Below are positions 2,480-43,426 of a stretch of DNA of 44,183 nt, in pieces (position 1 is the stretch's first letter; the number at the start of each line of letters is the position of its first letter). The translations under genes were made by a program, and so were the position numbers. A model generated the notes under the pieces. The model searched no databases and was not told the DNA's origin. It worked only from the letters and a program-made list of their open reading frames with translations. Source of the stretch: Escherichia phage Psq-1; the sequence record PQ595991.1, one strand, 5' to 3'.

Positions 2480-2682
2480 GCTTGACTTGCAACCAACATA
2501 GAGGCCATACTGCAACCAACCAATAAGAGGAGTAATCAAGATGGCACGTAACGATATTTGGGTATTAGCGATCTGGACCACCGCGGCTTTTATCGGCATG
2601 GTTATTTGCGAATTGATATAACCCGCCGCCATACGGACCGTGATATATTGTCCACGGTCCACTAATCAGGAATTAATTAAAT

Positions 2683-3825
2683 ATGCACCCGCAAACTAAA
2701 ATTACCGACGAGCAATTGACCGCAGAAATTCAGGCAGGGACTACGGTTAAAGAGATTGCGAAGGAATACGGCATTGCACTTCGTAACGTCTACATGCGCA
2801 AAGCCCGCCTGTCGAAAAAGGGGATTGGTCACGGCAATGATGCCGTGATCCGTAAGCGCGTTGCCGATGGTTTTGGGGTTAAGCGCGTATCGGCCCTGGT
2901 GCGCGGCAATGGCGAAGAGGTCATGTCGTGGGTCATCACTGAGCAGGACAAGGAGCGCCAACTCGAAGCCATGCGCGCTGTTGTCGAGGGTATGAACAGC
3001 GAAATCACACCGGCAGCGCCAGTAAACGCCCCGCCAGTCCCGATCCAGGCGCTCGACTTGCTCAACCTGTACACAGTGTCCGACTTCCACTTGGGAATGC
3101 TGGCATGGGGCGAGGAGACTGGCGAAGATTGGGATATGGCGATTGCTGAAGACCTGTTCTACCGCTGGTTTGTCGAAGCCTTCGCCCGCGCACCGGACGC
3201 AGGCACTGCCGTTATCAATATCCTCGGAGATATGGCCCACTTTGACAGCCTCGACGCCGTCACACCCGCCAGCGGTCACGTACTGGACGCGGATACCCGC
3301 TACCAGAAACTGGTCCGCTATATGATTCGCATGGTGCGCAACGTGGTTGACCTGGCGCTGCAAAAACACCACAAAGTAAAACTGCTAATCGTTCAGGGTA
3401 ATCATGACGAATCGGGTATGATTTGGCTTGCTGAGATGTTCAATACCCTGTATGAGAACGAGCCGCGCGTCGATGTGGACACGTCCCCGGACGTCTACAA
3501 AATGGTGCAGCACGGTAAGACCACGCTATTTTTCCACCACGGGCACAAAGCGCGATTCGATGTTATCGAGCAGGTTATGATCTCTAAATTCAGACAGGCG
3601 TTCGGGTCGAGCGAATACAGCTACGCGCACGTAGGCCATTTGCACCACCAGAAGATTGTCGAGTCTCGCAACATGATTGTTGAACAGCACCGGACGCTCG
3701 CAGCGAAAGACGCCTACGCCAGTCGTGGCGGTTGGATGTCCGGTCGCAGCGCCAACGTCATTACCTACAGCGCCAACTACGGCGAAGTAGCGCGCTTAAC
3801 CATTAGCCCGGAAATGTTGAAATGA
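2683..3825 (+). CDS. HTH domain fused to calcineurin-like metallophosphoesterase (380 aa)
   Basis: N-terminal ~110 aa with HTH-like TVKEIAKEYGIALRNVYMRKARL. C-terminal domain has all five metallophosphoesterase motifs: DFHLG (DxH), ILGDMAHFD (GDxxD), VQGNHDE (GNHD/E), FFHHGH, HVGHLHH (GHxH). Confidence 0.6.
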   Translation: MHPQTKITDEQLTAEIQAGTTVKEIAKEYGIALRNVYMRKARLSKKGIGHGNDAVIRKRVADGFGVKRVSALVRGNGEEVMSWVITEQDKERQLEAMRAVVEGMNSEITPAAPVNAPPVPIQALDLLNLYTVSDFHLGMLAWGEETGEDWDMAIAEDLFYRWFVEAFARAPDAGTAVINILGDMAHFDSLDAVTPASGHVLDADTRYQKLVRYMIRMVRNVVDLALQKHHKVKLLIVQGNHDESGMIWLAEMFNTLYENEPRVDVDTSPDVYKMVQHGKTTLFFHHGHKARFDVIEQVMISKFRQAFGSSEYSYAHVGHLHHQKIVESRNMIVEQHRTLAAKDAYASRGGWMSGRSANVITYSANYGEVARLTISPEMLK

Positions 3826-4034
3826 TCAGACAAGTATTCATGAGCACGCAGGCCACCCGCCTGGAAGAGCTACGCAAGCAACTAGAAGGCTTGCGCCGAT
3901 TTGAACGAACGGCAGCGGCAGTCGGAATGTCGATGGACGAGAGGATCGAAATACTGTCGCAAATACGCTACACAGAAGGAGCGATAAGAGAAGTACAAAG
4001 CATGTTAACCCGATACTACGGGCGCGACGTTTAA
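3822..4034 (+). CDS. hypothetical protein (70 aa)
   Basis: Track ORF with ATGA overlap to the upstream gene; helical composition, no motif recognised. Confidence 0.35.
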   Translation: MIRQVFMSTQATRLEELRKQLEGLRRFERTAAAVGMSMDERIEILSQIRYTEGAIREVQSMLTRYYGRDV

Positions 4035-4703: not shown

Positions 4704-6088
4704 TGCGTAACTATGCGGCAGAACACCGCGCACTGGAACGCGCGATCGCAAAGCGCAACAGACCACCACGCCCGACACGCGTTGCGCAGGCGGTGCGTCT
4801 TTACCAGCCTGATTGCTTGCCGCACCAGGTTGAACTATTGCGCGACACAAAGACTAAAATCCTCGGCCTGTGCTCTGGCTTCGGCGGCGGCAAGTCATGG
4901 GTCGCAGCCCGTAAGGTAATCCAGCTTTTAACCCTGAACCCTGGTCATGATGGCATCGTTACAGAGCCGACTATTCCACTCCTGGTTAAGATCATGTACC
5001 CGGAACTGGAGAAGGCATTCGACGAGGCTGGCTTCCGGTGGAAGTTCAATAAGCAGGACAAGATCTACAATGTGCTGGTGAAAGGCAAATGGACTCGCGT
5101 TATCTGTGAGTCAATGGAGAACTATACCCGCCTGATCGGTATCAACGCCGCGTGGATTGTTGCCGACGAGTTCGACACCACGAAGCAAGACGTCGCAATG
5201 GCGGCATACCACAAACTTCTCGGTCGTCTGCGTGCAGGCGTAGTCCGCCAGTTTGTCATAGTGTCCACGCCGGAAGGATTCCGGGCGATGTATCAAATTT
5301 TCGAGGTGGAGAAAGATAGCCAGAAACGCTTGATCCGGGCGAAGACCACGGACAACCACCATTTACCGGCAGACTTTATAGACACGCTTCGCAGTCAGTA
5401 CCCGGCTAACCTGATTGATGCGTACCTGAACGGCATGTTTGTTAACCTTACGTCGGGCGCGGTGTACAAGATGTTCAACCGCGAGGAGAACGCCAGCACC
5501 GAAGAAGTGCAGCCGGACGACACGCTGATTATCGGTATGGACTTTAACGTCACGAAAATGGCGGCGGTCGTGTATGTAAGACGGCAGCGTACCACCGAGA
5601 ACAAGGAGTTCCGCGACGAGATTCACGCGGTGGATGAATTTGTGGACCTGTTTGACACCCCGGCTATGATTGAGGCGATCGAGGAGCGCTACCCAGAACA
5701 TTGCGCCGCCGGTCGTGTTGTCGTTTACCCGGATAGCAGCGGCAAATCACGCAAGACGGTCAACGCGTCGTCGTCCGATATCGCACAACTGGAAGACGCG
5801 GGCTTCGATGTGGAATATGACAGCGTTAACCCGCCAGTGAAAGACCGATTGATCGCGATGAATACGATGATGTGCAACTCGAAGGGCGTTCGCCAGTATT
5901 TTGTCAACCTGGATAAATGCCCTACACTAGCGAAATGTCTGGAACAGCAGGTTTACGACCTGAAGAAAGGCGAGCCGGATAAAACCGCCGGTGTAGACCA
6001 CATGAACGATGCCGCGGGCTACCCTATTGCGCACTTGTTCCCTGTGATTCGTCCGATCGCCGTTGTTCCAACTGTAGACTTCTACTAA
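4703..6088 (+). CDS. terminase large subunit
   Basis: Walker A GFGGGKS, Walker B-like WIVADEFD, C-terminal nuclease-like region; 461 aa. Confidence 0.85.
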   Translation: MRNYAAEHRALERAIAKRNRPPRPTRVAQAVRLYQPDCLPHQVELLRDTKTKILGLCSGFGGGKSWVAARKVIQLLTLNPGHDGIVTEPTIPLLVKIMYPELEKAFDEAGFRWKFNKQDKIYNVLVKGKWTRVICESMENYTRLIGINAAWIVADEFDTTKQDVAMAAYHKLLGRLRAGVVRQFVIVSTPEGFRAMYQIFEVEKDSQKRLIRAKTTDNHHLPADFIDTLRSQYPANLIDAYLNGMFVNLTSGAVYKMFNREENASTEEVQPDDTLIIGMDFNVTKMAAVVYVRRQRTTENKEFRDEIHAVDEFVDLFDTPAMIEAIEERYPEHCAAGRVVVYPDSSGKSRKTVNASSSDIAQLEDAGFDVEYDSVNPPVKDRLIAMNTMMCNSKGVRQYFVNLDKCPTLAKCLEQQVYDLKKGEPDKTAGVDHMNDAAGYPIAHLFPVIRPIAVVPTVDFY

Positions 6089-9920: not shown

Positions 9921-10069
9921 TTTTGTGTCCTCATTGTTGGTGTGCAACCAATATAGCGCAACCAAGACAAGGATTGCAAGCTAATTTTGCGATTATTTTT
10001 ATCGCTGATAATATTAGAAGCGTGAAGTCGAGCGGGTGGCCTGCTCTGCCACAATCCCAGGGGGATAGC

Positions 10070-26078: not shown

Positions 26079-27719
26079 ATGGCAGCGGGTACACTATCCG
26101 TAACGAATAACAGCAAGGCGGTTGTCGGGGTAGGCACGACGTTTACCACGTTTACCGCTGGCGACTTCTTAACTCTGGTGGTGGGGCAAGTGCCTTACAC
26201 TGTTGCTATCGCGTCCGTCGAAAGCGACACCGCGATTACGCTTGTGCTTCCGTTCGACGGCCCCACGGCAACCGGCCTCGCGTGGGATGGCGTTAAGCGC
26301 GATACCATGTCGCTGGCAACGATGGGCGTAACAGTACAGGCACAGAAAGCGTTGCGCTTGATGATCGCTGACGAAAACAACTGGCGTGCAATCTTCGGAG
26401 ACGAAGAAGAAGTCACGGTAACGCTGCCGAACGGGCAAGTTATGCAAGGTATGGCATGGGGCTACCTGTCACAATTGATGAGGCAGATCGACCCCGTTGA
26501 AATGCGCAACCTGCAACAACAAGCCGCGGCATCTGAAGCAGCAGCGCAAGGATTTCGCAATGAGGCCGAAGGCTTCAAGACTGAGACGGCGGGGATCCGC
26601 GACGCCACCAACCAGATTAAGGCGGATACGCAGGCTATCCGCGACGCCACCAACCAGATTAAGGCGGATACGCAGGCTATCCACGACGCCACCAATACCA
26701 TCAAGACGCAGACGGCCCAGATTAAGACTGACACCGGCGTTATTCGCGATGAGGCCAATGCCGCGAAGGCTGAAGCGCAATCCGCCCGAGATGCCGCGCT
26801 GGGATATCGGAACGAGGCCGAACAATTCAAGAATGAGATTGACCCGTCTAACTTTCTGGCAAAGGGTGGCAACCTGGCTGGGTTAACTGACTTGTCCGAG
26901 TCGCGGGATAACTTGGGTTTAGGAGCGTTGGCGACTAAAGATTCGGCGGCGCTAAACTCCACAGATACGACCGGTATTCTGCCCTTAGATAAGGGCGGTT
27001 TAGGCGCTGGTACCATCCCTGGCGCACGGGAGACGATGCATATTTATGGTCATGACGCTACGTTCGGGACCATAAATAATATCCTCACATACTTCAACAA
27101 TATTGCGGGTAACGGCGGACTCTTCTCGTTTCGAGATGGTGCCGTTGACGCCACTAACACCTACAAATTCGGCTCAGCAATACTGTTTCGCTCAGCCGAC
27201 ACCTACGGACTGTTAAGTGTTGACCACAACAACGGAAACGTTAGAGCATCCGGTGGTGTAGTTTCTGGTGGGATCGCGGCCACAGCATACATCAACAACC
27301 TGTGGGGTACGCGTAACACCACCGTAGACGGTAACGGGTTTATTAAAACCGCGTCGCCCATCGTCAAGATCTTCAGTGACGGTGCCGCGGAGACTAACGA
27401 CGAGGCCGAAGGCGTTACGGTGACTCGCATATCTGCGGGGGTGTATGTTGTGGAGGGGTGTCTAGGCCTCAACTCAGACCCATCCTGGGGCGGGCCTGAC
27501 GGCGGGATTGAGATTCCGACGGACGTGAACAAGCAGCCTCGTTTATGGGTTGATTATAAAGTGCGCGCTGACGGCTCTGTGGAGGTACGCACATACCACC
27601 GAACACACCCACACGCTCCAGCATTCGCAAGAAATGAGATAGAAGGTGTGGCGGAAGGGGACCCGGTTGATATACCGCGTGGCACGTTCATATCTGTTCG
27701 GGTTAATATGCCTGAGTAA
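26079..27719 (+). CDS. tail fibre protein (546 aa)
   Basis: ATG 26079 with GAGGA upstream; coiled-coil shaft with 14-aa repeats (IRDATNQIKADTQA), Gly-rich C-terminal domain. Confidence 0.7.
   Translation: MAAGTLSVTNNSKAVVGVGTTFTTFTAGDFLTLVVGQVPYTVAIASVESDTAITLVLPFDGPTATGLAWDGVKRDTMSLATMGVTVQAQKALRLMIADENNWRAIFGDEEEVTVTLPNGQVMQGMAWGYLSQLMRQIDPVEMRNLQQQAAASEAAAQGFRNEAEGFKTETAGIRDATNQIKADTQAIRDATNQIKADTQAIHDATNTIKTQTAQIKTDTGVIRDEANAAKAEAQSARDAALGYRNEAEQFKNEIDPSNFLAKGGNLAGLTDLSESRDNLGLGALATKDSAALNSTDTTGILPLDKGGLGAGTIPGARETMHIYGHDATFGTINNILTYFNNIAGNGGLFSFRDGAVDATNTYKFGSAILFRSADTYGLLSVDHNNGNVRASGGVVSGGIAATAYINNLWGTRNTTVDGNGFIKTASPIVKIFSDGAAETNDEAEGVTVTRISAGVYVVEGCLGLNSDPSWGGPDGGIEIPTDVNKQPRLWVDYKVRADGSVEVRTYHRTHPHAPAFARNEIEGVAEGDPVDIPRGTFISVRVNMPE
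26595..26678 (+). repeat. perfect 42-bp tandem duplication inside the tail fibre gene
   Basis: ATCCGCGACGCCACCAACCAGATTAAGGCGGATACGCAGGCT twice (26595-26636, 26637-26678), followed by a degenerate third unit. Confidence 0.85.
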
Positions 27720-27731
27720 AGCATAATGCGA

Positions 27732-27753
27732 AGGGGCCATTCGGCCCCTTTTT
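27732..27753. terminator. bidirectional rho-independent terminator
   Basis: AGGGGCC-ATTC-GGCCCCT hairpin followed by TTTTT, between convergent genes. Confidence 0.6.
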
Positions 27754-28327
27754 AATTTGAGTTTTCCCAGTCCATTTTGCGCCGCACAAGCGGGCTTTCG
27801 TAGTATTCCTTACCTTCCACTTCCACTAAATGCCAGTCATTCACAATCACGTATGGCTCTGCTATATCCTCAATCACGCCGTGCGCGCTATGCTGCCCGA
27901 ACGACACGCCAACCAGAATAACTCCGGCAACCCGACGGGAAAGATACTCGCGGGCACAACGGGCCTCAACCAGACCGCGACGGATGCCGCTGGTGGCTTT
28001 GACCTCATATGTCCAGACGGCATCAATCATGTGCTCTTTGTAGTCGGGACCGGATTTTACCTTGCGCTTGCCGACCATGATAATATCGCCGCGGTCAATG
28101 GTATTGGCGCTAAACAGGCCGGTACGCATGAGCAAGCCTTGAGGGATACAACTGCGCCCGCCTGCTTGCCCTTCCAGGTACATGCCCGCAAACATCTCGC
28201 CCAGCACACCGACCAGTCGGCTTTGCTTGCACGCGTCAGACTTTAAGCGCCATTGGTCAAACTCGATGCTTGCTATCATTGCCGCCAGGTGGAATTGTTT
28301 ACCAGATATTTCATATTCGCCGTACAT
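27752..28327 (-). CDS. hypothetical protein with PD-(D/E)XK-like signature (191 aa)
   Basis: RGDIIMVGKRK...GPDYKEHMIDAVWTYEVK resembles the D...(D/E)xK core seen in the VRR-NUC protein of this genome (PDLIIIINGKIVFVEVK). Weak. Confidence 0.35.
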   Translation of the reverse strand: MYGEYEISGKQFHLAAMIASIEFDQWRLKSDACKQSRLVGVLGEMFAGMYLEGQAGGRSCIPQGLLMRTGLFSANTIDRGDIIMVGKRKVKSGPDYKEHMIDAVWTYEVKATSGIRRGLVEARCAREYLSRRVAGVILVGVSFGQHSAHGVIEDIAEPYVIVNDWHLVEVEGKEYYESPLVRRKMDWENSN

Positions 28328-28369
28328 CGTGCGGTCCTCATTGATGCGGGCCGAAGCCCGCGATTAGAA

Positions 28370-28891
28370 TTATTTCAGTGCGCCAGTCACCAGTGTTTTT
28401 TCCATGTTGCGGAAGTCTTCCGGCGTCATGAGGATTTTGGACCCATCCTCGCCGGTGAGCACGACCATAGGCTGGACGTATTGCTCTGCGATGCCGAAAT
28501 TAGCGGCTTTAACCGTCTTGCCTGCCGATGACGAAGGATGCCACGCCCCCGCGGTGGCGATGGGCCAACCTTTAAGGCTGTCGTATTGCGCTGCCGTTGT
28601 ATCAACCTGAATCTCGTCGTGTACGGTCATGTACGACTCGCCCAGCAAAGCCGCATACGCTACCAGGTCGACGATATTGTCCTCCTGGTGCTTACGGTGC
28701 TGGCGTACCAGCTTCAGGCAGATCAAGAAGGTCCAGGCTTCTTGCTCGGTCAGGTCTCGACCGGTAAGCGCGTTAAACACGGCAGCAATTTGTTTTGCGC
28801 TGCGTTCCTCTTTCGCGTTGTCATAGCCGTTTTCTTTTCCTCGCTGTTCCATAGTGGTGGCGGCGTTTTTGCAGTATTCGTATGCTTTCAT
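28370..28891 (-). CDS. hypothetical protein (173 aa)
   Basis: Track ORF with RBS AAAAAGGA and a sigma70-like promoter upstream; no motif assigned. Confidence 0.45.
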   Translation of the reverse strand: MKAYEYCKNAATTMEQRGKENGYDNAKEERSAKQIAAVFNALTGRDLTEQEAWTFLICLKLVRQHRKHQEDNIVDLVAYAALLGESYMTVHDEIQVDTTAAQYDSLKGWPIATAGAWHPSSSAGKTVKAANFGIAEQYVQPMVVLTGEDGSKILMTPEDFRNMEKTLVTGALK

Positions 28892-28932
28892 TATGTGGTC
28901 CTTTTTAGGGGCAATATTGCCCCGACGCGTTA

Positions 28933-28961
28933 ACTATAGTGCAACCAACTATTGGTTGCAA
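28933..28961 (-). promoter_or_regulatory. sigma70-like promoter overlapping an inverted ATTGGTTGCA pair
   Basis: Minus strand reads TTGCAA (-35), 17-bp spacer, TATAGT (-10). The inverted repeat TGCAACCAA-CTA-TTGGTTGCA (28940-28960) overlaps it. Confidence 0.4.
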
Positions 28962-29419
28962 GTAAATTTTGCAACATTTATTGCGTAAATTTTCGGAACC
29001 AGATCGCTGCACGCCCGACGAATTGCCGCGATGTTCTTCTCGCAATCTTCAATGATGACCAGTTCCGACACGTCTGCGTAGCAGACCATTTTGAACACGG
29101 CGCACGCCTTAAACTCTGGCGGCGGGGTATCGTCCAGCATGTGGCGCATAAACAACCGGCCTGTCGGGAATACTTCCAGTTGCTCGGCGGTAGTCTCCCA
29201 ACATTCGCGCTGCCGGTTGGTCAGATAAGCGATCTCGAAGCCTTGCTCTTTATACATGCGCAACAGCGGCAGCATATCCATGTTCAGATCTTCGCGGACG
29301 TGCGCTTTGTGCCACTTCGCCCAAAAGGTGGATTTTGTTTTTATGCCCGGAACAAGGTCGGCGCGTGCATCACTCGAACCATTAATAACGCCATCAAGAT
29401 CACAAATCAGTAGTTTCAT
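28949..29419 (-). CDS. HAD-superfamily phosphatase (156 aa)
   Basis: HAD motif I CDLDGV near the N-terminus, motif II-like LTNR, motif IV-like IIED. Confidence 0.6.
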   Translation of the reverse strand: MKLLICDLDGVINGSSDARADLVPGIKTKSTFWAKWHKAHVREDLNMDMLPLLRMYKEQGFEIAYLTNRQRECWETTAEQLEVFPTGRLFMRHMLDDTPPPEFKACAVFKMVCYADVSELVIIEDCEKNIAAIRRACSDLVPKIYAINVAKFTCNQ

Positions 29420-29640
29420 TTTAAGCTCTCAATAAGGGTGTGTCGGGCGCTGCGCGCGGTGAAGGAGTTGCATACGAAATGGCAACGCTGAGTCATGACA
29501 AGCCAACCGGTGAGGTCAAGGCCCAGGATGTATTCGGGGCGAGACGCGCGCACCACACGATCGCGGCGTGGGTCAATACCGTAGTCTTTTTGCATTTGGT
29601 ATACTACCGCGGGGTCGCGGTCAACGATTAAGATATTCAA
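29416..29640 (-). CDS. hypothetical protein (74 aa)
   Basis: Track ORF with overlapping stop/start coupling to its neighbours. Confidence 0.35.
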   Translation of the reverse strand: MNILIVDRDPAVVYQMQKDYGIDPRRDRVVRASRPEYILGLDLTGWLVMTQRCHFVCNSFTARSARHTLIESLK

Positions 29641-30106
29641 GGAGTTCTCCTTCGCTCATTATTTCAATTTGTGCGCTGCCGATGGGTGGCGCTTCGTCAA
29701 ATATTATCAATTGCTGGCACTTGTTATTGCTCGGCCCGACTTCGCCGGTGACGGCGTGAATGAATCTAATCCGCCAGTCCAGAAGAATTATCATATTGGC
29801 AGTCTTCCGGGCCAACTTCGCCCACTTCGTCGACGTGTCTTGATTCAGCAGCATGACAGTCCGGCGACCGTGCGCTGCGCATTCCACCCACGGCAGCGGG
29901 TCGGAATACGGCGGATTGCACCACTTCCACCCTTTCAACTCTGCCCAGTCCACATCAAGCGCGCTGTGTTCCGCCGTGAAGTAACGCGGGAGCAGGTGGT
30001 TTGCATCGCTTGCCGCCATATCGTAACGGAATCGGTACTTCCGACGAAGCGGTTTAAATAGAGCTGGCGGCGTGCGCCAGCTATCCTTTTGCTCATTCTT
30101 CGTCAT
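29621..30106 (-). CDS. phage Dam-like DNA N6-adenine methyltransferase (161 aa)
   Basis: Motif WCNPPYSD (NPPY catalytic motif) and overall size typical of small phage Dam-family methylases. Confidence 0.7.
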   Translation of the reverse strand: MTKNEQKDSWRTPPALFKPLRRKYRFRYDMAASDANHLLPRYFTAEHSALDVDWAELKGWKWCNPPYSDPLPWVECAAHGRRTVMLLNQDTSTKWAKLARKTANMIILLDWRIRFIHAVTGEVGPSNNKCQQLIIFDEAPPIGSAQIEIMSEGELLEYLNR

Positions 30107-30545
30107 GGTCGGGGGCTATCGCGTAAAGGGCAATTTTCTTATCACTGTTTAACATGCGTAGTATGCGCTTTGACACCCCGGCGCTAAGCGCATACCGGTG
30201 TAATTCTTCGCGGCCCAGCCACCCTACCGGAACCAGATCTTTCCGGTCGATCTTAGACTGGCGACCTTTGGGGCGCACGTACTCCTCAGCCCGTTTGCAA
30301 TGCTCACGCAGCGCGTCGGCAGTGATGCGGTTTAGTGCAACGCTGGTGGTGTATCCGGTGCGCTGCATAATCCCCATCAATTCGAATAGCAGTTCGAAGC
30401 GCTCCTCTAACTCCTGGCGCACTTTCTTCTCCCCCTCATATAGCGACTGGTTGGCGTCCGCCAACGCGTTCGCACGTTTGGCCTGTTCACGGGCTTCGAG
30501 GCATTGCGCGGCCCAGTAATCTTTTTCTTCTTGTAAAATTTTCAT
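30093..30545 (-). CDS. hypothetical coiled-coil protein (150 aa)
   Basis: ATG 30545 with GGAGA upstream; charged helical composition. Confidence 0.45.
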   Translation of the reverse strand: MKILQEEKDYWAAQCLEAREQAKRANALADANQSLYEGEKKVRQELEERFELLFELMGIMQRTGYTTSVALNRITADALREHCKRAEEYVRPKGRQSKIDRKDLVPVGWLGREELHRYALSAGVSKRILRMLNSDKKIALYAIAPDHDEE

Positions 30546-30562
30546 CGTGTTGTCTCCAGATA

Positions 30563-30590
30563 TTAAAAAGGGCGTCCAACCGGACACCCT
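30563..30590 (-). terminator. rho-independent terminator or attenuator on the minus strand
   Basis: Minus strand reads AGGGTGTCC-GGTT-GGACGCCCT (one G-U pair) then TTTTTAAT; sits between two boxes and the next RBS. Confidence 0.45.
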
Positions 30591-30625
30591 CAATATAATG
30601 CAACCAATCTAGTTACGCAACCAAT

Positions 30626-30949
30626 TTATGCGTAGAAGTTCGGGTCGCGTGCAACGTCTACCAAATAAAGATTGCTCATGCGGTTGCCGTAGTGCCCTGG
30701 TGTGCGCTGGCGGCACACAACGGCGAAGCCGGGAGGGATTATATTGCCCGTCTCAATAATCCACGCTACGCGCGCGCCAGATAGCGTCTTGCCGTTGTAT
30801 TCGATGCGTGTTCCGCCATCGGCAGTGTTAAGGTTGCCAATCTTGCAGCCTGTGGACTTCAGGCGAATGACGCCGGTCTTGCTGTCGTAGGAAAAAAGCT
30901 GATTGGTCATTGCCACTGAAAAGTCGATGGCGTCGAATGCAGTATTCAT
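30626..30949 (-). CDS. HNH_3-like (homing-endonuclease-like) domain protein, possibly degenerate (107 aa)
   Basis: ARVAWIIETGNIIPPGFAVVCRQRTPGHYGNRMSNLYLV resembles the HRLVW...G.IP.G..VDH.NG..DNR..NL pattern, but the usual catalytic His is replaced (VVCRQ). Confidence 0.35.
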   Translation of the reverse strand: MNTAFDAIDFSVAMTNQLFSYDSKTGVIRLKSTGCKIGNLNTADGGTRIEYNGKTLSGARVAWIIETGNIIPPGFAVVCRQRTPGHYGNRMSNLYLVDVARDPNFYA

Positions 30950-31641
30950 TTTAAATTTTCCTCGTTAACCGCTATCGCGAAGCCGCGCGGGGTGAGCGAC
31001 CTGATTAATTTGGTGCGGGCAGATTTGCCTCCGAGGCGACTATACTGCTTCGAGTACCCTTTTTCAACGAAAACAGGTTTCTTCTCTGGCATACGGAAGC
31101 CGTTGCCGGTCCATAAGCAGGTCATCTTCGGATATGAATCGCGGGCGTTGATGTATTCCGGGAAGAGCGGGTGTACGTCATCCTCCGGCAGATATCCGCC
31201 ATACTCCCACGGGTCAAACGAGTGGTCCGGCTTACGCCATTGAGTTGATAGCACGCTGCGCGGATTCTCAATCATATACGGCACTTCAAAGAAATCACCC
31301 AGGTAAGCGGCGATCTTCGCGGTGCGCACCGCCTTAAGCTGGAAGGCAGGGTCGCGGGCGCGTTTGCGCGGGAAAGCTGGCGCACCGCTAACCGCCAGGT
31401 CCGTACACGGCGGGAATGCATAAATGATATCCGGCGTACCGAAATCGCCATTCATCGCGCGGTCTACAAAGTCCAGATCGATAAACTCATTACGATAGCG
31501 GATACCGCGCCCATAAATCCGGTAGTCCAGGTACGACCCGTGATCGGCTTCGGAGTAGTTGAAGCAATAACATTTATGCCCCATCTCGGCAGCACGCTCA
31601 ATCATCAAGCCGCTGCCGTCAAACAATGACCAAATTATCAT
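30946..31641 (-). CDS. compact C5-cytosine DNA methyltransferase-like protein (231 aa)
   Basis: Motif I-like SLFDGSG, PC motif AFPPC, ENV-like IENP, possible motif X GFAIAVNE; far shorter than canonical C5 methylases. Confidence 0.45.
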   Translation of the reverse strand: MIIWSLFDGSGLMIERAAEMGHKCYCFNYSEADHGSYLDYRIYGRGIRYRNEFIDLDFVDRAMNGDFGTPDIIYAFPPCTDLAVSGAPAFPRKRARDPAFQLKAVRTAKIAAYLGDFFEVPYMIENPRSVLSTQWRKPDHSFDPWEYGGYLPEDDVHPLFPEYINARDSYPKMTCLWTGNGFRMPEKKPVFVEKGYSKQYSRLGGKSARTKLIRSLTPRGFAIAVNEENLK

Positions 31642-33329: not shown

Positions 33330-33503
33330 TTATTTTTGTTCTGCGCGGTAGCGGCGCTGCCGTTCGCGCTCTTTTTTATTGCGGCACGATTTGCACTCTG
33401 CCCGATACCCGTCCGGGCTTCGCGCAGTCTTACCGGTGTATTTGTGGAACTGGGATAGCGGTTTAACGCAGCCGCAATTACTGCAGCGTTTTTCTTCAAT
33501 CAT
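33330..33503 (-). CDS. small zinc-ribbon protein (57 aa)
   Basis: ATG 33503 with GAGGA upstream; CSNCGC ... CKSC four-Cys arrangement, basic C-terminus. Confidence 0.4.
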   Translation of the reverse strand: MIEEKRCSNCGCVKPLSQFHKYTGKTARSPDGYRAECKSCRNKKERERQRRYRAEQK

Positions 33504-33563: not shown

Positions 33564-33822
33564 CCAATAAATCACAGTCGGCTATGTTGTCTATAACGCG
33601 AACGTCCGCACCGCGGCGGGCCATTCGCTCATGTTCTCGTACCTGGTGCGGCTTTGGTTTACCGCCTGGGCGCTTCACTTCGACGAAAACTATCTTGCCG
33701 TTGATGATGATTATCAGGTCGGGCGCTCCTGCGCGCCCCTCCCATGCCACTTTACGGCAGAATCCGCCGACGGCTTTCACCCTCTTCATAAGGTAACTTT
33801 GGATCTTGCCTTCTGGTGTCAT
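33544..33822 (-). CDS. VRR-NUC domain nuclease (92 aa)
   Basis: APDLIIIINGKIVFVEVKRPGGKPKPHQ matches the PD-(D/E)XK core of VRR-NUC proteins. Confidence 0.7.
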   Translation of the reverse strand: MTPEGKIQSYLMKRVKAVGGFCRKVAWEGRAGAPDLIIIINGKIVFVEVKRPGGKPKPHQVREHERMARRGADVRVIDNIADCDLLVAELVA

Positions 33823-36113
33823 TATTTTCTGTACCTGTACATAATGTCGCCTTCCGCGGCAAGCGGGAAGCCTTTCGCCCAAACAGGGAGGTCGCACATC
33901 AGCGCGCACAACTCCTCGGTTGTGTAGTCGTCAGTATCCGGCACTTCGGTTATCAGTTCATCGTGTACGGACAGTACGATCTCATATCCCGCAGATTCAA
34001 CGCCCGGCATGGACCATGCGAGGATATCGCGGCACAGAGCCTGCACGATGTTTTCCGTCAGTTTGCCGCCGTAGGTGTACTGGAATCCCCACTGGCGCGT
34101 CGTCTGATTCTCACCCTGATATTTAATGCGGGTGCTGGTGCGCTTCTTGCCGGTGTCTTCGTCGATCTCGGTCGTGACAGACAGCGCGATGCCCGGATAA
34201 CTCATGATGCGCCCCGACGGCAACTCGATTTTCAACCACCACCCCGCGGCGTTCGGGTCGTCGCGCTCCTCGTCGAAGGTGGGGTCGTGCTTCGCCTTCG
34301 TGCGGACTATCTTGAGCGCTTTCTTGCCATCAGGGCGAACGTTCGCGCCAGCCCAGTACGCTTTGCCCGGATTGCGGATCGCGCAGAGCACCGCGTCTTC
34401 CAGTTCAGCCCAAAATGCTACCGTCTTCGGGTGCGACTCGCGCCACATACGTTTGATCGCATCACACGTCAACCATACGTTTTTCGGCAGTATATAAGTT
34501 GGGCGCTCGTCCTTCTTGCCAGGCTTCGGCGGGCGCTTCGCTTCGTTAATGCGGGCATATTCATAACCACGTTTCGCCGCAGCCCAAATATGATCGGGGA
34601 ATGTACCCTTCATGACGTCCGCCATCGCATACAGGTCTAGACCCAGGTTTTTAGCGAACTGCAAGAACGCCGCAACGCCGCCGCCATAGCCTAGTCCCAA
34701 TTCGCACGCCTTACCGATCTGGCGTAAGTCTTTGCGGTTGGCTTTAATGTATTCCGGGTCGAGGCCAAACATCTTACCGGCAGTTTCACAATAAATATCG
34801 CGACCGGCCTTAAACACCATTAGCGCGGTTTTCTCGCCAGCGACCCAGGCAAGCCCGCGTCCTTCCACGTTGGAATAGTCCGCTACGACAAACTTCTTGC
34901 CCTTCGCCGGAATAATGCACCCGCGAACGGTCGAGGCCGTTAGCTTCGATATGTCATACGCCCAGTGCGCTGTCCCGCGTAACAGGGAATTGATGCCGTT
35001 GGTAAGCATGTGCGACCGGACCCAAAAAGAAACGTCGCTCTCGCCTTCACGGCGTTTAATCTTCCCTTCGTGGTCGTCGCTATACTCGCCGCGTGCCAGG
35101 TTTTGAGGTTGAAAGCCTTTACCGGCCCAGCGTAGCGTGCGCTTTGCCCCACCATACTGAAGACAACCACGGCGGCGACCATCGGCGGACAGGCCATTGA
35201 CAAGCGGATTGTATTTAGTAGATGCCGTTGATGACGCACCGAGGCGCATTTCGATAAGCGCTTTGCCTTCGTCGGGGAAATCCGGGTCTTCCAGCAGGTC
35301 GTTAAGCGTGGATTTCTGCGCGTTGTGGATTGTGAACGCAGGCGCGAGGTCGCGCAGCGCTGGCAGGAAGTCATTGCCGGTCAGCTTACCACCGAAGCGC
35401 TCCCAGGCTTCTTCCTTCAACTCTTCCTTATGCGCCTGCACCGCTTTGATCGCAGCGCGCGCCAGGTCAACGTCCACGTAGAAGCCGCGGTCGTTAATCA
35501 ATTGGTCGATAAGCAGGATTTCGTCTTCCTTCGGCGTATTACCCCAGTCCGGTATGCGCCAATAGACTTCCCTCATCGCGATGATGTCCAGCGCGGCATA
35601 GCGCAGGAATTTAGCCCACTCCTCGGGGTGCGTCTTGCGCGTGTAGCGGCGGATTTTGTAGGTCTTAGGGGTAGGCTTACAGAATCGTTTAATCAGCGCC
35701 TTGCCTGCCTTATCCTTCGCGTGTTCTGCGTCAACACCCAACACCTGGCATTGCATATCGAGGCTACCCGGCAGCGCGTGTCGAAAGGCCATAATCATGG
35801 TATCTTCGATCTGGCACACTGGCAGATCTATACCCCACTTTTCGCGAATAACCAGGCGGTCAAACAGGAGGCCGTTAGCCATCACTATTTTTGCTTTCTT
35901 GCGGGATACACGGCGGAGCGCCTTGCGCAGTTCGCGCGGCATCGTAGGGGATTCGGTGCAATCCCAGGTCTGTACGCGGCCCTCGTCGATGGCGTAGGTG
36001 CAGATCATAATCTCGGTTGTCGGGTGCTCTGCGTAGGCGTATGCGCCAACTTTCTTCAGGTCTACCCCGCTAAATGTCTCGGTATCGAGAAACAGGCGTT
36101 TGAAGTCTTTCAT
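33822..36113 (-). CDS. DNA polymerase I-type (family A) with 3'-5' exonuclease domain
   Basis: ATG 36113 with GAGGA upstream; exo motif FLDTETFS near the N-terminus; 763 aa with a family A polymerase-like C-terminal half. Confidence 0.8.
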   Translation of the reverse strand: MKDFKRLFLDTETFSGVDLKKVGAYAYAEHPTTEIMICTYAIDEGRVQTWDCTESPTMPRELRKALRRVSRKKAKIVMANGLLFDRLVIREKWGIDLPVCQIEDTMIMAFRHALPGSLDMQCQVLGVDAEHAKDKAGKALIKRFCKPTPKTYKIRRYTRKTHPEEWAKFLRYAALDIIAMREVYWRIPDWGNTPKEDEILLIDQLINDRGFYVDVDLARAAIKAVQAHKEELKEEAWERFGGKLTGNDFLPALRDLAPAFTIHNAQKSTLNDLLEDPDFPDEGKALIEMRLGASSTASTKYNPLVNGLSADGRRRGCLQYGGAKRTLRWAGKGFQPQNLARGEYSDDHEGKIKRREGESDVSFWVRSHMLTNGINSLLRGTAHWAYDISKLTASTVRGCIIPAKGKKFVVADYSNVEGRGLAWVAGEKTALMVFKAGRDIYCETAGKMFGLDPEYIKANRKDLRQIGKACELGLGYGGGVAAFLQFAKNLGLDLYAMADVMKGTFPDHIWAAAKRGYEYARINEAKRPPKPGKKDERPTYILPKNVWLTCDAIKRMWRESHPKTVAFWAELEDAVLCAIRNPGKAYWAGANVRPDGKKALKIVRTKAKHDPTFDEERDDPNAAGWWLKIELPSGRIMSYPGIALSVTTEIDEDTGKKRTSTRIKYQGENQTTRQWGFQYTYGGKLTENIVQALCRDILAWSMPGVESAGYEIVLSVHDELITEVPDTDDYTTEELCALMCDLPVWAKGFPLAAEGDIMYRYRK

Positions 36114-36339
36114 TGCTGGATCCTCACTACGGCGTCGGCGCTGCCGATCATGGAGAAGATACCGTCGGAAAGGGTTATCTCCTCGCCGTTGTTGCGAATC
36201 TCGGCAACGGTGAAATATTCCCCCAGTAACTTGGACCATACTCGCATTCCGACTTTTACTTCGCTGGCTTTAATGCGCATTTTTCATTGTCCTATTAAAA
36301 AAGCCCGCATTAAGCGGGCTTGAATAGTGGGCTTTGCCC

Positions 36340-37068: not shown

Positions 37069-37158
37069 TTTCAAATTCCTCATTTTCACATGTATCGGGG
37101 TTATTGTGAGCCACCCCGTTCGGCTTGGTTGCTAATCTACTTGGTTGCGCCTAAGCGG

Positions 37159-42955: not shown

Positions 42956-43049
42956 ATTTTGCGCGCATTGGTTGCCATTTTGAGTGTTTTTAGCTGGTCG
43001 CATTGGTTGCCGTGTAGTGTAAAAATATTGAATAGTTATGCAATAAAAC

Positions 43050-43222: not shown

Positions 43223-43370
43223 AAATCCGGGATTGCAAAATACACGGCAGCACATTGTAAATTGCGGTCGTCGCGGAACTAGGCAACCAATGCGGGATGC
43301 AGAACGTGGTGTGAAAAATGCAGTCACAGCAGATAGCGATCAACTTTTTCATACGCGTGATTAATATTGG

Positions 43371-43399
43371 TTGCATTCACCTCGGCGCCTTGCTATATT
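43371..43399 (+). promoter_or_regulatory. sigma70-like promoter built from two ATTGGTTGCA boxes
   Basis: -35 TTGCAT (43371-43376), 17-bp spacer, -10 TATATT (43394-43399). Confidence 0.4.
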
Positions 43400-43426
43400 G
43401 GTTGCACACCAACAGGAGGGCGGAAC

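Follow-up and report, generated by a model that had tools for sequence, protein, structure and literature searches.

The eight-gene block between the tail-fibre and helicase genes of Escherichia phage Psq-1 is an ordinary part of the Dhillonvirus replication arm

Two phage proteins described as triggers of bacterial immunity are the closest known counterparts of genes in the locus analyzed here. Ksap1 (KpAvs2-stimulating protein 1) of phage SECphi18 is bound directly by the immune sensor KpAvs2 and activates it, SECphi18 mutants deleted for Ksap1 are viable, and the role published so far is that of a defence trigger, not of an anti-defence factor; sequence and Foldseek searches by its authors gave no homologue of known function (PMC11564622). 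The second is bas06_0055 of phage KarlJaspers, the Dcm studied in phage K42, which makes 5mC at CCWGG and is a trigger of retron Ec86/Eco1. When four residues of the K42 enzyme were changed together (C82, E128, K175 and K176, Dcm^mut), retron Ec86 was no longer activated. Additionally, phenotyping of the BASEL phages found the Dhillonvirus members to be more sensitive to restriction than the deazaguanine-modified Queuovirinae (PMC8594841).

Our window, the whole 44,183-nucleotide stretch of record PQ595991.1, is the genome of a Dhillonvirus (HK578-like) coliphage. Between a plus-strand tail-fibre gene, which ends at 27719, and a minus-strand gene for a SNF2-type helicase lie eight minus-strand open reading frames. 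Both the frames and their flanks are where an initial annotation, made from the letters alone, had put them, and most of its calls for single genes (Dam, HAD phosphatase, C5-methylase, HNH-like) proved correct. The features of the locus are as follows.

27730..27751, unstranded: G+C-rich 9-bp hairpin between the convergent tail-fibre and 191-aa genes (folding energies on both strands)
27752..28327, minus: 191-aa protein with a predicted PD-(D/E)XK (restriction-endonuclease-like) fold (structure model)
28370..28891, minus: DUF6378 protein, 173 aa (Pfam PF19905, E 1e-9)
28933-28961, minus: promoter-like element TTGCAA, 17 nt, TATAGT (consensus match; conserved)
28949..29419, minus: stand-alone HAD phosphatase of the Pnkp1/T4 Pnk type, 156 aa, without kinase domain (PHROG 415)
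29416..29640, minus: Ksap1 homologue, 74 aa, TTG start (identity to SECphi18 gp51)
29621..30106, minus: Dam-family N6-adenine DNA methyltransferase, 161 aa (Pfam PF05869; PHROG 111)
30093..30545, minus: genus-restricted orphan protein, 150 aa (PHROG 10530)
30592-30624, minus: promoter-like element TTGCGT, 17 nt, TATATT (consensus match; conserved)
30626..30949, minus: atypical HNH-like protein, 107 aa (PHROG 99)
30946..31641, minus: compact Dcm-like C5-cytosine DNA methyltransferase, 231 aa (full-length similarity to KarlJaspers bas06_0055)

Each of the eight frames has a PHROG family match and purifying selection acts on all eight genes, with pairwise dN/dS of 0.03-0.22 for their minus-strand frames among nine Dhillonvirus loci. 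Three of the eight are already known, namely the two DNA methylases and Ksap1, the trigger of the bacterial Avs2 immune sensor.

The block had been annotated as an accessory island, and this claim does not survive the comparison with related phages. Matches to the block were found in 158 phage records (150 with a coverage of at least 80%), and the corresponding numbers for the DNA polymerase gene are 157 and 153. Metagenomic relatives with a polymerase identity of 83% have the same gene order. On the helicase side the block has no boundary; the start codon of the C5-methylase gene overlaps the helicase stop codon by 4 nt (31638-31641), and the block is translationally coupled to the helicase gene. 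Overlaps of 4-20 nt are found at helicase/C5-methylase, C5-methylase/HNH-like, 150-aa/Dam, Dam/Ksap1 and Ksap1/HAD. A horizontally acquired, moron-like cargo that varies from phage to phage would fit the position at a strand-switch junction beside the highly variable tail-fibre locus, the nucleotide identity of the block to its relatives (mostly 80-90%, vs 90-95% for the polymerase gene) and small indels such as the added gene for an 80-aa membrane protein in Oekolampad, Opt212 and Teewinot. However, essentially every member of the genus has the block, its GC content (0.525-0.549) is the same as that of the rest of the genome, and there are no repeats at its flanks, no integrase and no tRNA; we regard such an acquisition as extremely improbable. 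In nearly all Dhillonvirus coliphages this block forms the usual end of the replication-gene arm, and it is ordinary for the genus. We hold it to be quite likely that these 3.9 kb are the promoter-distal part of the leftward replication/early arm, that they are vertically inherited, and that the eight genes act separately and not as one system.

Whether the genes belong together was treated with caution in the initial annotation, and rightly so. We see no sign that the eight form one system, because single genes are lost independently: EP23 has no C5-methylase gene and Opt212 and Teewinot only a remnant of it, the HAD gene is truncated in rolling and GeorgBuechner and absent in L017, and BEK2-2 has a truncated 150-aa gene. 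The alternative would be a DNA hyper-modification or anti-restriction system, in which the methylase-like proteins, the HAD phosphatase, the DUF6378 protein and the nuclease jointly make or install an unusual base. The genes are indeed contiguous and co-oriented in every Dhillonvirus, an unrelated contig has DUF6378 two genes away from a HAD_PNKP phosphatase, Serratia phage Tsm2 and N4-like phages have HAD homologues beside DNA methylases, and one RefSeq record labels the DUF6378 protein as nucleotide modification associated. Yet the C5-methylase or HAD gene can go while the remaining components stay intact, the product of the K42 homologue of the C5-methylase is plain 5mC, and in the Drexlerviridae some 7 kb separate the Dam and Dcm genes and the other block genes are missing. 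The block is also split by an internal terminator and two internal promoter-like sites, DUF6378 has no recurrent domain fusions, and the comparative sensitivity of Dhillonvirus phages to restriction speaks against such a system, which makes it very unlikely in our view.

The genes can also be taken separately, beginning with the C5-methylase. The 231-aa protein is 54% identical to the characterized KarlJaspers bas06_0055 over its full length (E 1e-86) and carries FDGSG at residues 7-11, PPC at 77-79 and ENP at 125-127; a search with the Pfam C5-methylase model PF00145 did not match it. Homologues are found in 1530 phage records. By homology, 30946-31641 encodes an orphan Dcm-type C5-methylase, in agreement with the compact C5-methylase-like protein of the initial annotation. 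The two enzymes share their compact size (231 aa here, 236 aa in KarlJaspers) and the nearness of the gene to one for a SNF2-type helicase, and C79, E125 and K172 here align with C82, E128 and K175 of the K42 enzyme. They differ at the K176 position, which is Met here, and the described enzyme is from another phage family (Drexlerviridae); site specificity and retron triggering are putative for the Dhillonvirus copies.

The call of a Dam-like methylase with an NPPY motif also stands. The 161-aa protein is a strong match to the phage Dam family (PF05869, E 3.4e-36; TIGR01712), with NPPY at residues 64-67, a readable N-terminal D-x-W-x-T-P signature and a dN/dS of 0.07. Its TIGR01712 score of 86 bits is under the 97-bit NCBIfam equivalog cut-off and it is just 30% identical to the Dam-like enzyme of KarlJaspers. 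Homology places 29621-30106 as an orphan Dam-family N6A-methylase, for which we assume the GATC target of the family. Site counts show that neither GATC (164 observed, 196 expected) nor CCWGG (156 observed, 157 expected) is avoided and that many 6-bp palindromes are almost missing; this site usage agrees with methylation protecting GATC and CCWGG. The two methylases would modify CCWGG and probably GATC sites of replicating phage DNA, and the methylated progeny would resist restriction enzymes that cut unmethylated sites, at the price that retrons can sense such methylases. Since E. coli itself already methylates GATC and CCWGG, the advantage of having phage copies can only be presumed.

The theme of DNA modification and anti-restriction in the initial annotation is reasonable for the two methylases, but one gene that it left unassigned, as a place for an undescribed function, is the published defence trigger: 29416-29640 has already been described as Ksap1, sensed by KpAvs2 (PMC11564622). 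The 74-aa protein shares 67 of 74 residues (91%) with SECphi18 gp51, by which homology we identify it as Ksap1. Both proteins have 74 aa and both genes lie between those for Dam and the phosphatase (PMC11564622). L39, L47, T50 and F60, which count in KpAvs2 binding or escape, are kept here. At residue 30 it has Val instead of Lys, like the SECphi6 allele that is not sensed, and there are six further substitutions.

Ksap1 and the 150-aa protein are the fastest evolving members of the block, with dN/dS of 0.22 and 0.20 vs 0.03-0.07 for its enzymes (nine Dhillonvirus loci), and they are its best candidates for anti-defence proteins. In a comparison with L006, a distant relative, identity is 37% for Ksap1 and 28% for the 150-aa protein, against 83% for the polymerase. 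The 150-aa gene shows an identity of just 60-80% in 140 of 154 phage records, and its product falls into 215 clusters at 90% identity. In a variability map about 100 N-terminal residues are conserved and the C-terminal 45 or so are hypervariable. The initial annotation described this protein as a coiled-coil. Its start had been placed correctly at ATG 30545 and not at TTG 30593, with GGAG 7 nt upstream of the ATG and the PHROG match opening at residue 17 of the longer frame. The label 'DNA ligase' that the protein has in some records is unsupported; no significant PDB or Pfam match was found.

Both proteins may work at the phage-host interface, which would account for their fast evolution and repeated loss. 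It could be argued that the block serves chiefly through these two orphans, which would inhibit host defence, and that Avs2 evolved to detect one of them. Their rates and divergence, the confinement of variability to the C-terminal third of the 150-aa protein, and the fact that Ksap1 is dispensable and bound directly by an immune sensor would suit this idea. However, neither protein has been reported to inhibit any defence, PDB and Pfam searches gave no match, the searches of the Ksap1 authors gave no homologue of known function, and a mere defence trigger escaping recognition would evolve just as fast. We find this role rather doubtful, and keep to the reading of eight separately acting genes of the replication arm.

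The HAD phosphatase call was borne out by a profile match to the phosphatase domain of Pnkp1 (E 1.7e-7), with a profile built without Drexlerviridae sequences. The protein matches PHROG 415, 'polynucleotide kinase' (E 2.5e-36), and conserves D7-x-D9, N68-R69 and a (D/E)D motif at a dN/dS of 0.04, so homology points to a Pnkp-type HAD phosphatase domain at 28949-29419. It shares the DxD acyl-phosphatase HAD core with Pnkp1 and T4 Pnk, the best solved relative being Capnocytophaga Pnkp1 (PDB 4xrp); T4 Pnk (PDB 1ltq) reaches just E 0.07-0.5 once Drexlerviridae sequence is omitted from the profile. Unlike them it has no kinase domain, and the block holds no recognizable ligase partner. It would take 3'-phosphates off nucleic-acid ends or nucleotides.

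The 191-aa protein, whose family is confined to Dhillonvirus and its closest relatives, has the same predicted fold as the small PD-(D/E)XK nucleases I-Ssp6803I, SSV D212, NhoI, the DpnI catalytic domain and Hjc, and its invariant E44...D102...E108-x-K110 matches their catalytic signature; from the model we infer a PD-(D/E)XK nuclease. In the 173-aa protein, DUF6378 occupies roughly residues 1-88 and is joined by a length-variable linker to a conserved C-terminal segment of some 35 aa; homologues span 130 to 199 aa. DUF6378 itself is a family with 4021 representatives at 50% identity and invariant R17, E29, R30, S31, K60, R63, D71, D75, Y79 and E85; the protein has no PDB match and an AF2 model with a pLDDT of just 45.

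The HNH-like call for the 107-aa protein is upheld by PHROG 99 (E 6.7e-16), with no HNH match in a Pfam search. Its layout seems to resemble the core of HNH_3-type phage homing endonucleases. However, it is without their DNA-binding tail, and the usual position of the catalytic His appears not to be conserved, with an invariant GHY..R..NL instead that extends as far as Edwardsiella phage eiAU-183. Additionally, a selfish homing element is expected to be sporadic, whereas this gene is fixed in essentially every member of the genus (161 records, every one with at least 80% coverage) under strong purifying selection (dN/dS 0.05).

The promoters and terminators of the block are consensus matches only. 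The hairpin at 27730-27751 had been called a bidirectional terminator. Either strand does fold (-16.9 and -16.7 kcal/mol, z about -3.3 and -3.1), but a clean U-run follows on the plus strand only and is poor on the minus, so that the bidirectional call holds only in part; the hairpin resembles an intrinsic terminator of plus-strand transcription. Three further signals, inside the block, had escaped the initial annotation: a terminator-like hairpin and two promoter-like elements. The element at 30592-30624 carries two direct TTGGTTGC copies and is directly followed by a 10-bp stem-loop with a U-run at 30591-30568 of the minus strand (-17.9 kcal/mol, z -3.4); together, 30568..30624 on the minus strand looks like a terminator/promoter junction dividing the block. 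Transcription would come in from the helicase operon, mostly end at the 30591-30568 hairpin and start anew at the two conserved promoter-like sites. The second of these, at 28933-28961, is followed by a stem-loop, GGGGCAATATTGCCCC, upstream of the DUF6378 gene. The recurrent motif TTGGTTGCA is present there as an inverted pair (28907..28961, minus strand) and is found at the same position in nine related loci.

The eight minus-strand genes at 27752-31641, between the tail-fiber gene on the plus strand and the SNF2-type helicase gene, are the distal part of the replication arm that runs leftward and not the accessory island that the initial annotation proposed. Four observations speak against an island. 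The 3.9 kb block matched 158 phage records by megablast, nearly all of them phages of Escherichia or Shigella in the genus Dhillonvirus (HK578, SSL-2009a, SECphi18 and BASEL Bas14-18 among them), with at least 80% of the block covered in 150 of the 158 at 80-95% identity, and the DNA polymerase gene of the window matched a set of the same size (157 records, 153 at coverage of at least 80%). A metagenomic relative with 83% identity in the polymerase keeps the gene order (helicase, 231 aa, 107 aa, 142 aa, Dam, 76 aa, HAD, DUF6378, 191 aa, convergent tail fiber), and so does a second distant relative, in which the HAD gene is missing. The GC content of the block equals that of the remaining genome. 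Finally, the start of the C5-methylase gene overlaps the helicase stop, and most of the other block genes are joined by overlaps of 4-20 nt. For the right-hand 24.7 kb of the window the best deposited genome is 92.4% identical over 96% of the length; because of these matches to deposited genomes, we regard the phage as a further member of a well-sampled genus.

Apart from the island, the initial annotation correctly describes a gene block that is typical of the genus and for the most part already annotated, and three of its genes have characterized homologues. All eight ORFs were found at the coordinates that it had assigned, and each matches a PHROG family. Pairwise Nei-Gojobori dN/dS was calculated per gene with orthologues taken from eight related loci, and the values indicate that all eight are real protein-coding genes in the frames listed here; the neighboring helicase gene gave 0.03.

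Genes of the block, with dN/dS
27752-28327, minus strand, 191-aa protein, candidate nuclease, dN/dS 0.05
28370-28891, minus strand, DUF6378 protein, dN/dS 0.135
28949-29419, minus strand, HAD phosphatase, dN/dS 0.04
29416-29640, minus strand, Ksap1 orthologue, dN/dS 0.22
29621-30106, minus strand, Dam-family methylase, dN/dS 0.07
30093-30545, minus strand, 150-aa orphan protein, dN/dS 0.20
30626-30949, minus strand, HNH-like protein, dN/dS 0.05
30946-31641, minus strand, predicted Dcm-like C5-methylase, dN/dS 0.03

The local gene order also recurs outside the genus. Helicase, HNH-like, methylase and methylase genes follow one another in Edwardsiella phage eiAU-183 (1360-1815 of its extracted locus, L020), and Serratia phage Tsm2 (203-2016 of L013) has helicase, methylase, Dam and HAD genes and then a convergent tail spike. 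This recurrence hints at an old module layout common to small siphoviruses. No Rfam family or tRNA was found in the window, and long repeats inside the block are at chance level, with the exception of a promoter motif described below.

Both methylase calls of the initial annotation were upheld. The C5-methylase (231 aa) is 54% identical over its full length to KarlJaspers bas06_0055 (236 aa; E 1e-86), and of the motifs used to recognize the family (I FxGxG, IV PC, VI ENV) its translation reads FDGSG at 7-11, FPPC at 76-79 and ENP at 125-127. K42, a close relative of KarlJaspers, has a 711-bp dcm gene whose product puts 5mC on the msDNA of retron Ec86 at CCWGG, as demonstrated by LC-MS and mutagenesis; retron activation was lost in the quadruple mutant C82A/E128A/K175A/K176A, and escaper phages had lost the dcm gene (bioRxiv 10.1101/2023.08.16.553469). 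Three of these four mutated residues (C82, E128 and K175) align with C79, E125 and K172 of the window protein. PHROG 757 is its sole family match (2e-82), and no Pfam family, PF00145 (DNA_methylase) included, or NCBIfam family was matched at E up to 1: the compact clade has diverged too far to be recognized by the general model. Homologues of this clade occur in 1530 phage records, and by its motifs and homology the gene is predicted to encode a Dcm-like C5-cytosine DNA methyltransferase of the compact phage clade. The Dam-family protein reaches PF05869 with 124.9 bits against a gathering cut-off of 28.1 (E 3e-36) and carries NPPY at residues 64-67; its 86.4 bits lie under the 97.05 cut-off of the NCBIfam equivalog TIGR01712. 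The literature was searched for methylome data on the BASEL Dhillonvirus phages, and nothing relevant was found.

The C5-methylase gene is cleanly deleted in EP23 (3601-3603 of L008) and reduced to remnant ORFs of about 60 aa in Opt212 (3161-3361 of L010) and Teewinot (3188-3373 of L011), with the helicase and HNH-like flanks intact in all three. These losses could be natural escapes from methylase-sensing retrons.

The gene at 29416-29640 had been listed as unassigned, but it has already been described. Bechon et al. gave the name Ksap1 to SECphi18 gp51, a 74-aa protein encoded between methylase and phosphatase genes, which is bound by the host defense protein KpAvs2, is sufficient to activate it and is deleted or mutated in escapers (PMC11564622). 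The window protein is identical to gp51 at 67 of 74 residues (91%, E 4e-52), and its gene lies between the Dam and phosphatase genes, the position described in that study, so that sequence, length and synteny all point to a Ksap1 orthologue. V30, one of three SECphi6-type changes that jointly abolish sensing (PMC11564622), is shared by the window protein with the non-sensed SECphi6 allele, whereas L39, L47, T50 and F60 are kept. The label 'acid phosphatase' in the RefSeq record of SECphi18 is a mislabel of Ksap1.

The 150-aa orphan is restricted to the genus and is variable within it: 140 of 154 records are only 60-80% identical, and clustering at 90% identity gives 215 clusters. The first 100 or so residues are conserved, with most of the variation falling in the last 45 or so. 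The window allele is rare, with its nearest relative in phage rolling (93%) and the next at 83%. Neither Pfam nor single-sequence and profile searches of the PDB matched it to a family or structure; a likeness of the profile to the NusA AR domain was non-significant (E about 0.5-3) and was rejected. Also rejected was the label 'DNA ligase', which the protein bears in the SSL-2009a, SO-1, HH3 and McMelon records: it matches no nucleotidyl-transferase family, and a remark by one depositor reads 'no evidence'. In records of relatives, small ORFs close to the helicase gene likewise bear the mislabels 'chromatin remodeling complex ATPase' and 'kilA anti-repressor', and such mislabels are propagated from record to record in GenBank and RefSeq.

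In some Dhillonviruses the 150-aa gene and the promoter/terminator junction are separated by one more gene, for a predicted membrane protein of 80 aa (PHROG 18961), whose insertion point is exactly at that boundary (about 30546 in the window). The window itself lacks this gene, as do SECphi18, rolling, EP23, SO-1 and BEK2-2.

Locations of the 80-aa membrane-protein gene, within the extracted loci
Oekolampad (L002), 5303-5545
Opt212 (L010), 3759-4001
Teewinot (L011), 3758-4000

Ksap1 and the 150-aa protein evolve fastest in the block, which fits escape from sensing and anti-defense activity alike. On the second of these, the two would be previously unrecognized anti-defense or host-takeover factors that share one internal promoter with Dam, and the sensing of Ksap1 by Avs2 would be a host counter-move against such a factor. 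We consider this rather unlikely.

The HAD phosphatase at 28949-29419, proposed initially from the sequence, is in agreement with our results. The protein belongs to PHROG 415 (E 2.5e-36), with N68-R69 and D7-L-D9, the DxD that supplies nucleophile and acid in HAD enzymes, invariant and with K104 and E124-D125 at the motif III and IV positions; the (D/E)D motif is conserved. A single-sequence PDB search gave nothing significant. A profile of six homologues matched the Pnkp1 phosphatase domain at E 1.7e-7, followed by acid phosphatases at 1e-3 and T4 Pnk at 0.07-0.5, and adding the Drexlerviridae homologue from KarlJaspers moved Pnkp1 to 9e-14 and T4 Pnk to 3e-6. The closest solved relatives are thus polynucleotide kinase-phosphatases. 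No P-loop 5'-kinase is fused or adjacent to it: the 156 aa are HAD only, and no kinase family was matched in the block with Pfam, PHROG or NCBIfam. Homologues come after helicase-methylase-Dam in Tsm2 and, in N4-like phages, after the DNA polymerase gene and close to the Dmt methylase. Truncated versions of the gene are found in rolling and GeorgBuechner.

In the 191-aa protein E44, D102, E108 and K110 are invariant in seven of seven family members, with identity down to 55%; this fits the catalytic residue signature of PD-(D/E)XK enzymes, E ... D ... (D/E)xK, and makes it a candidate nuclease. Single-sequence PDB searches with this protein, the HNH-like protein and the C5-methylase gave nothing significant. 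The 173-aa gene product of 28370-28891 carries an N-terminal DUF6378 domain (PF19905; residues 16-85, 39 bits against a gathering cut-off of 27.1), followed by a linker of very variable length (homologues have 130-199 aa) and a conserved C-terminal piece. This is a large family (4021 representatives at 50% identity) in which ten residues, mostly charged, are invariant. Two profiles found no PDB match, the AF2 model was unusable (pLDDT 45), and neither an informative fusion nor a recurrent weak match emerged when 40 long and 30 short members were scanned with Pfam. Unrelated phages have DUF6378 in their replication or early regions, in one case at a distance of two genes from a HAD_PNKP phosphatase, and the domain could be an uncharacterized phage enzyme or nucleotide-binding domain.

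The description of 30626-30949 as a degenerate HNH_3-like gene stands only in part: PHROG 99 is matched at 6.7e-16, its sole family match, but no curated Pfam HNH family is matched by the window protein at E up to 1 or by two relatives at E up to 5. By our reading of the sequence, the usual position of the catalytic His (C78-R81) is not conserved and H86, R90 and N93 are invariant. The homologue in eiAU-183, between the helicase gene and two methylase genes, shares the invariant GHY..R..NL. The protein is strongly constrained and is present at coverage of at least 80% in 161 of 161 matching records, a pattern unlike that of a sporadic homing endonuclease. A comparison with SO-1 gp37, labeled 'HNH endonuclease', was uninformative.

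The block has three intergenic gaps only, of 80, 57 and 42 nt. The exact 16-mer TTGGTTGCAYTATAKT lies on the coding strand in each of the two larger gaps, and relatives, a distant one among them, keep it in the corresponding two gaps. Both sites read as a sigma-70-like promoter (TTGC[AG][AT], 17 nt, TATA[TG]T) with a stem-loop after each copy, and the stem-loop at 30591-30568 has a U-run and was scored as an intrinsic terminator. This layout would give three transcription units, which we infer to be helicase with C5-methylase and HNH-like; 150-aa with Dam, Ksap1 and HAD; and DUF6378 with the 191-aa gene. At the far end, the hairpin at 27730-27751, between the convergent tail-fiber and 191-aa genes, had been called a bidirectional terminator; it is stable on both strands, but a good U-run is found on the plus strand only.

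The 8-mer TTGGTTGC has 19 copies in the window against 1.8 expected, a number reached in none of 100 shuffles. The copies are usually paired, 11-35 nt start to start, and several pairs overlap sigma-70-like -35/-10 hexamers and directly precede a Shine-Dalgarno sequence and ATG. The 8-mer probably serves the phage as a promoter or operator motif of its own.

Examples of TTGGTTGC sites
2489-2519, minus strand
9944-9965, minus strand
28941-28959
30600-30624, minus strand
37125-37148, plus strand
42968-43010, plus strand
43367-43405, plus strand

Single block genes are lost in the loci of relatives while their neighbors stay intact, and in Drexlerviridae the Dam and Dcm homologues are about 7 kb apart and occur without the other block genes. 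Because of these independent losses, the Drexlerviridae spacing and the internal promoter- and terminator-like signals, we conclude that the block genes are likely to serve separate functions in a shared operonic neighborhood and not one system. The two orphan methylases would maintain the methylation of phage DNA during replication at Dcm-type and, presumably, Dam-type sites, in line with GATC (164 observed, 196 expected) and CCWGG (156 and 157) not being avoided in the window. The cost of the methylases and of Ksap1 would be detection by host defenses (retrons and KpAvs2). For phage Dam, the retron reported to be activated is Sen2; phage Dcm activates retron Eco1 (bioRxiv 10.1101/2023.08.16.553469). 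Such a cost is a plausible reason for the recurrent gene losses, and since three of the eight genes (Dcm-like, Dam and Ksap1) are linked to defense sensing, the natural losses of the C5-methylase and of Ksap1/HAD look like escapes.

Many 6-bp palindromes are strongly avoided in the window (GCCGGC 1 against 20.6 expected, GGCGCC 2 against 21, TCCGGA 0 against 14.6, AAGCTT 0 against 14, CGGCCG 0 against 9.8 and GGGCCC 0 against 9.5); there is no EcoKI site, and CTAG is at 0.38 of expectation. In the BASEL phenotyping, Dhillonvirus phages were comparatively sensitive to the type I-III systems tested (PMC8594841), and therefore any protection by the methylases is narrow.

What is gained in practice is a clearer picture of a block that more than 150 sequenced coliphages carry. 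Among them are Bas14-18 and SECphi18, phages in wide use for research on defense. The GenBank mislabels of the 150-aa protein and Ksap1 are also corrected. The likeliest places for new function are these two fast-evolving orphans and the large DUF6378 family.

Two observations concern genes outside the block. Just outside it, a 57-aa zinc-ribbon ORF (CxxC...CxxC; 33330-33503, minus strand) has the VRR-NUC gene on one side and the helicase gene on the other. It matches PHROG 5558 'Lar-like restriction alleviation protein' (6.5e-17) as well as endonuclease VII and HNH zinc-ribbon families, and is a possible further anti-restriction candidate. The DNA polymerase I ORF (33822-36239, minus strand) is 805 aa when called mechanically against 2292 bp (763 aa) annotated in relatives, and translation probably begins about 42 codons after the first ATG.
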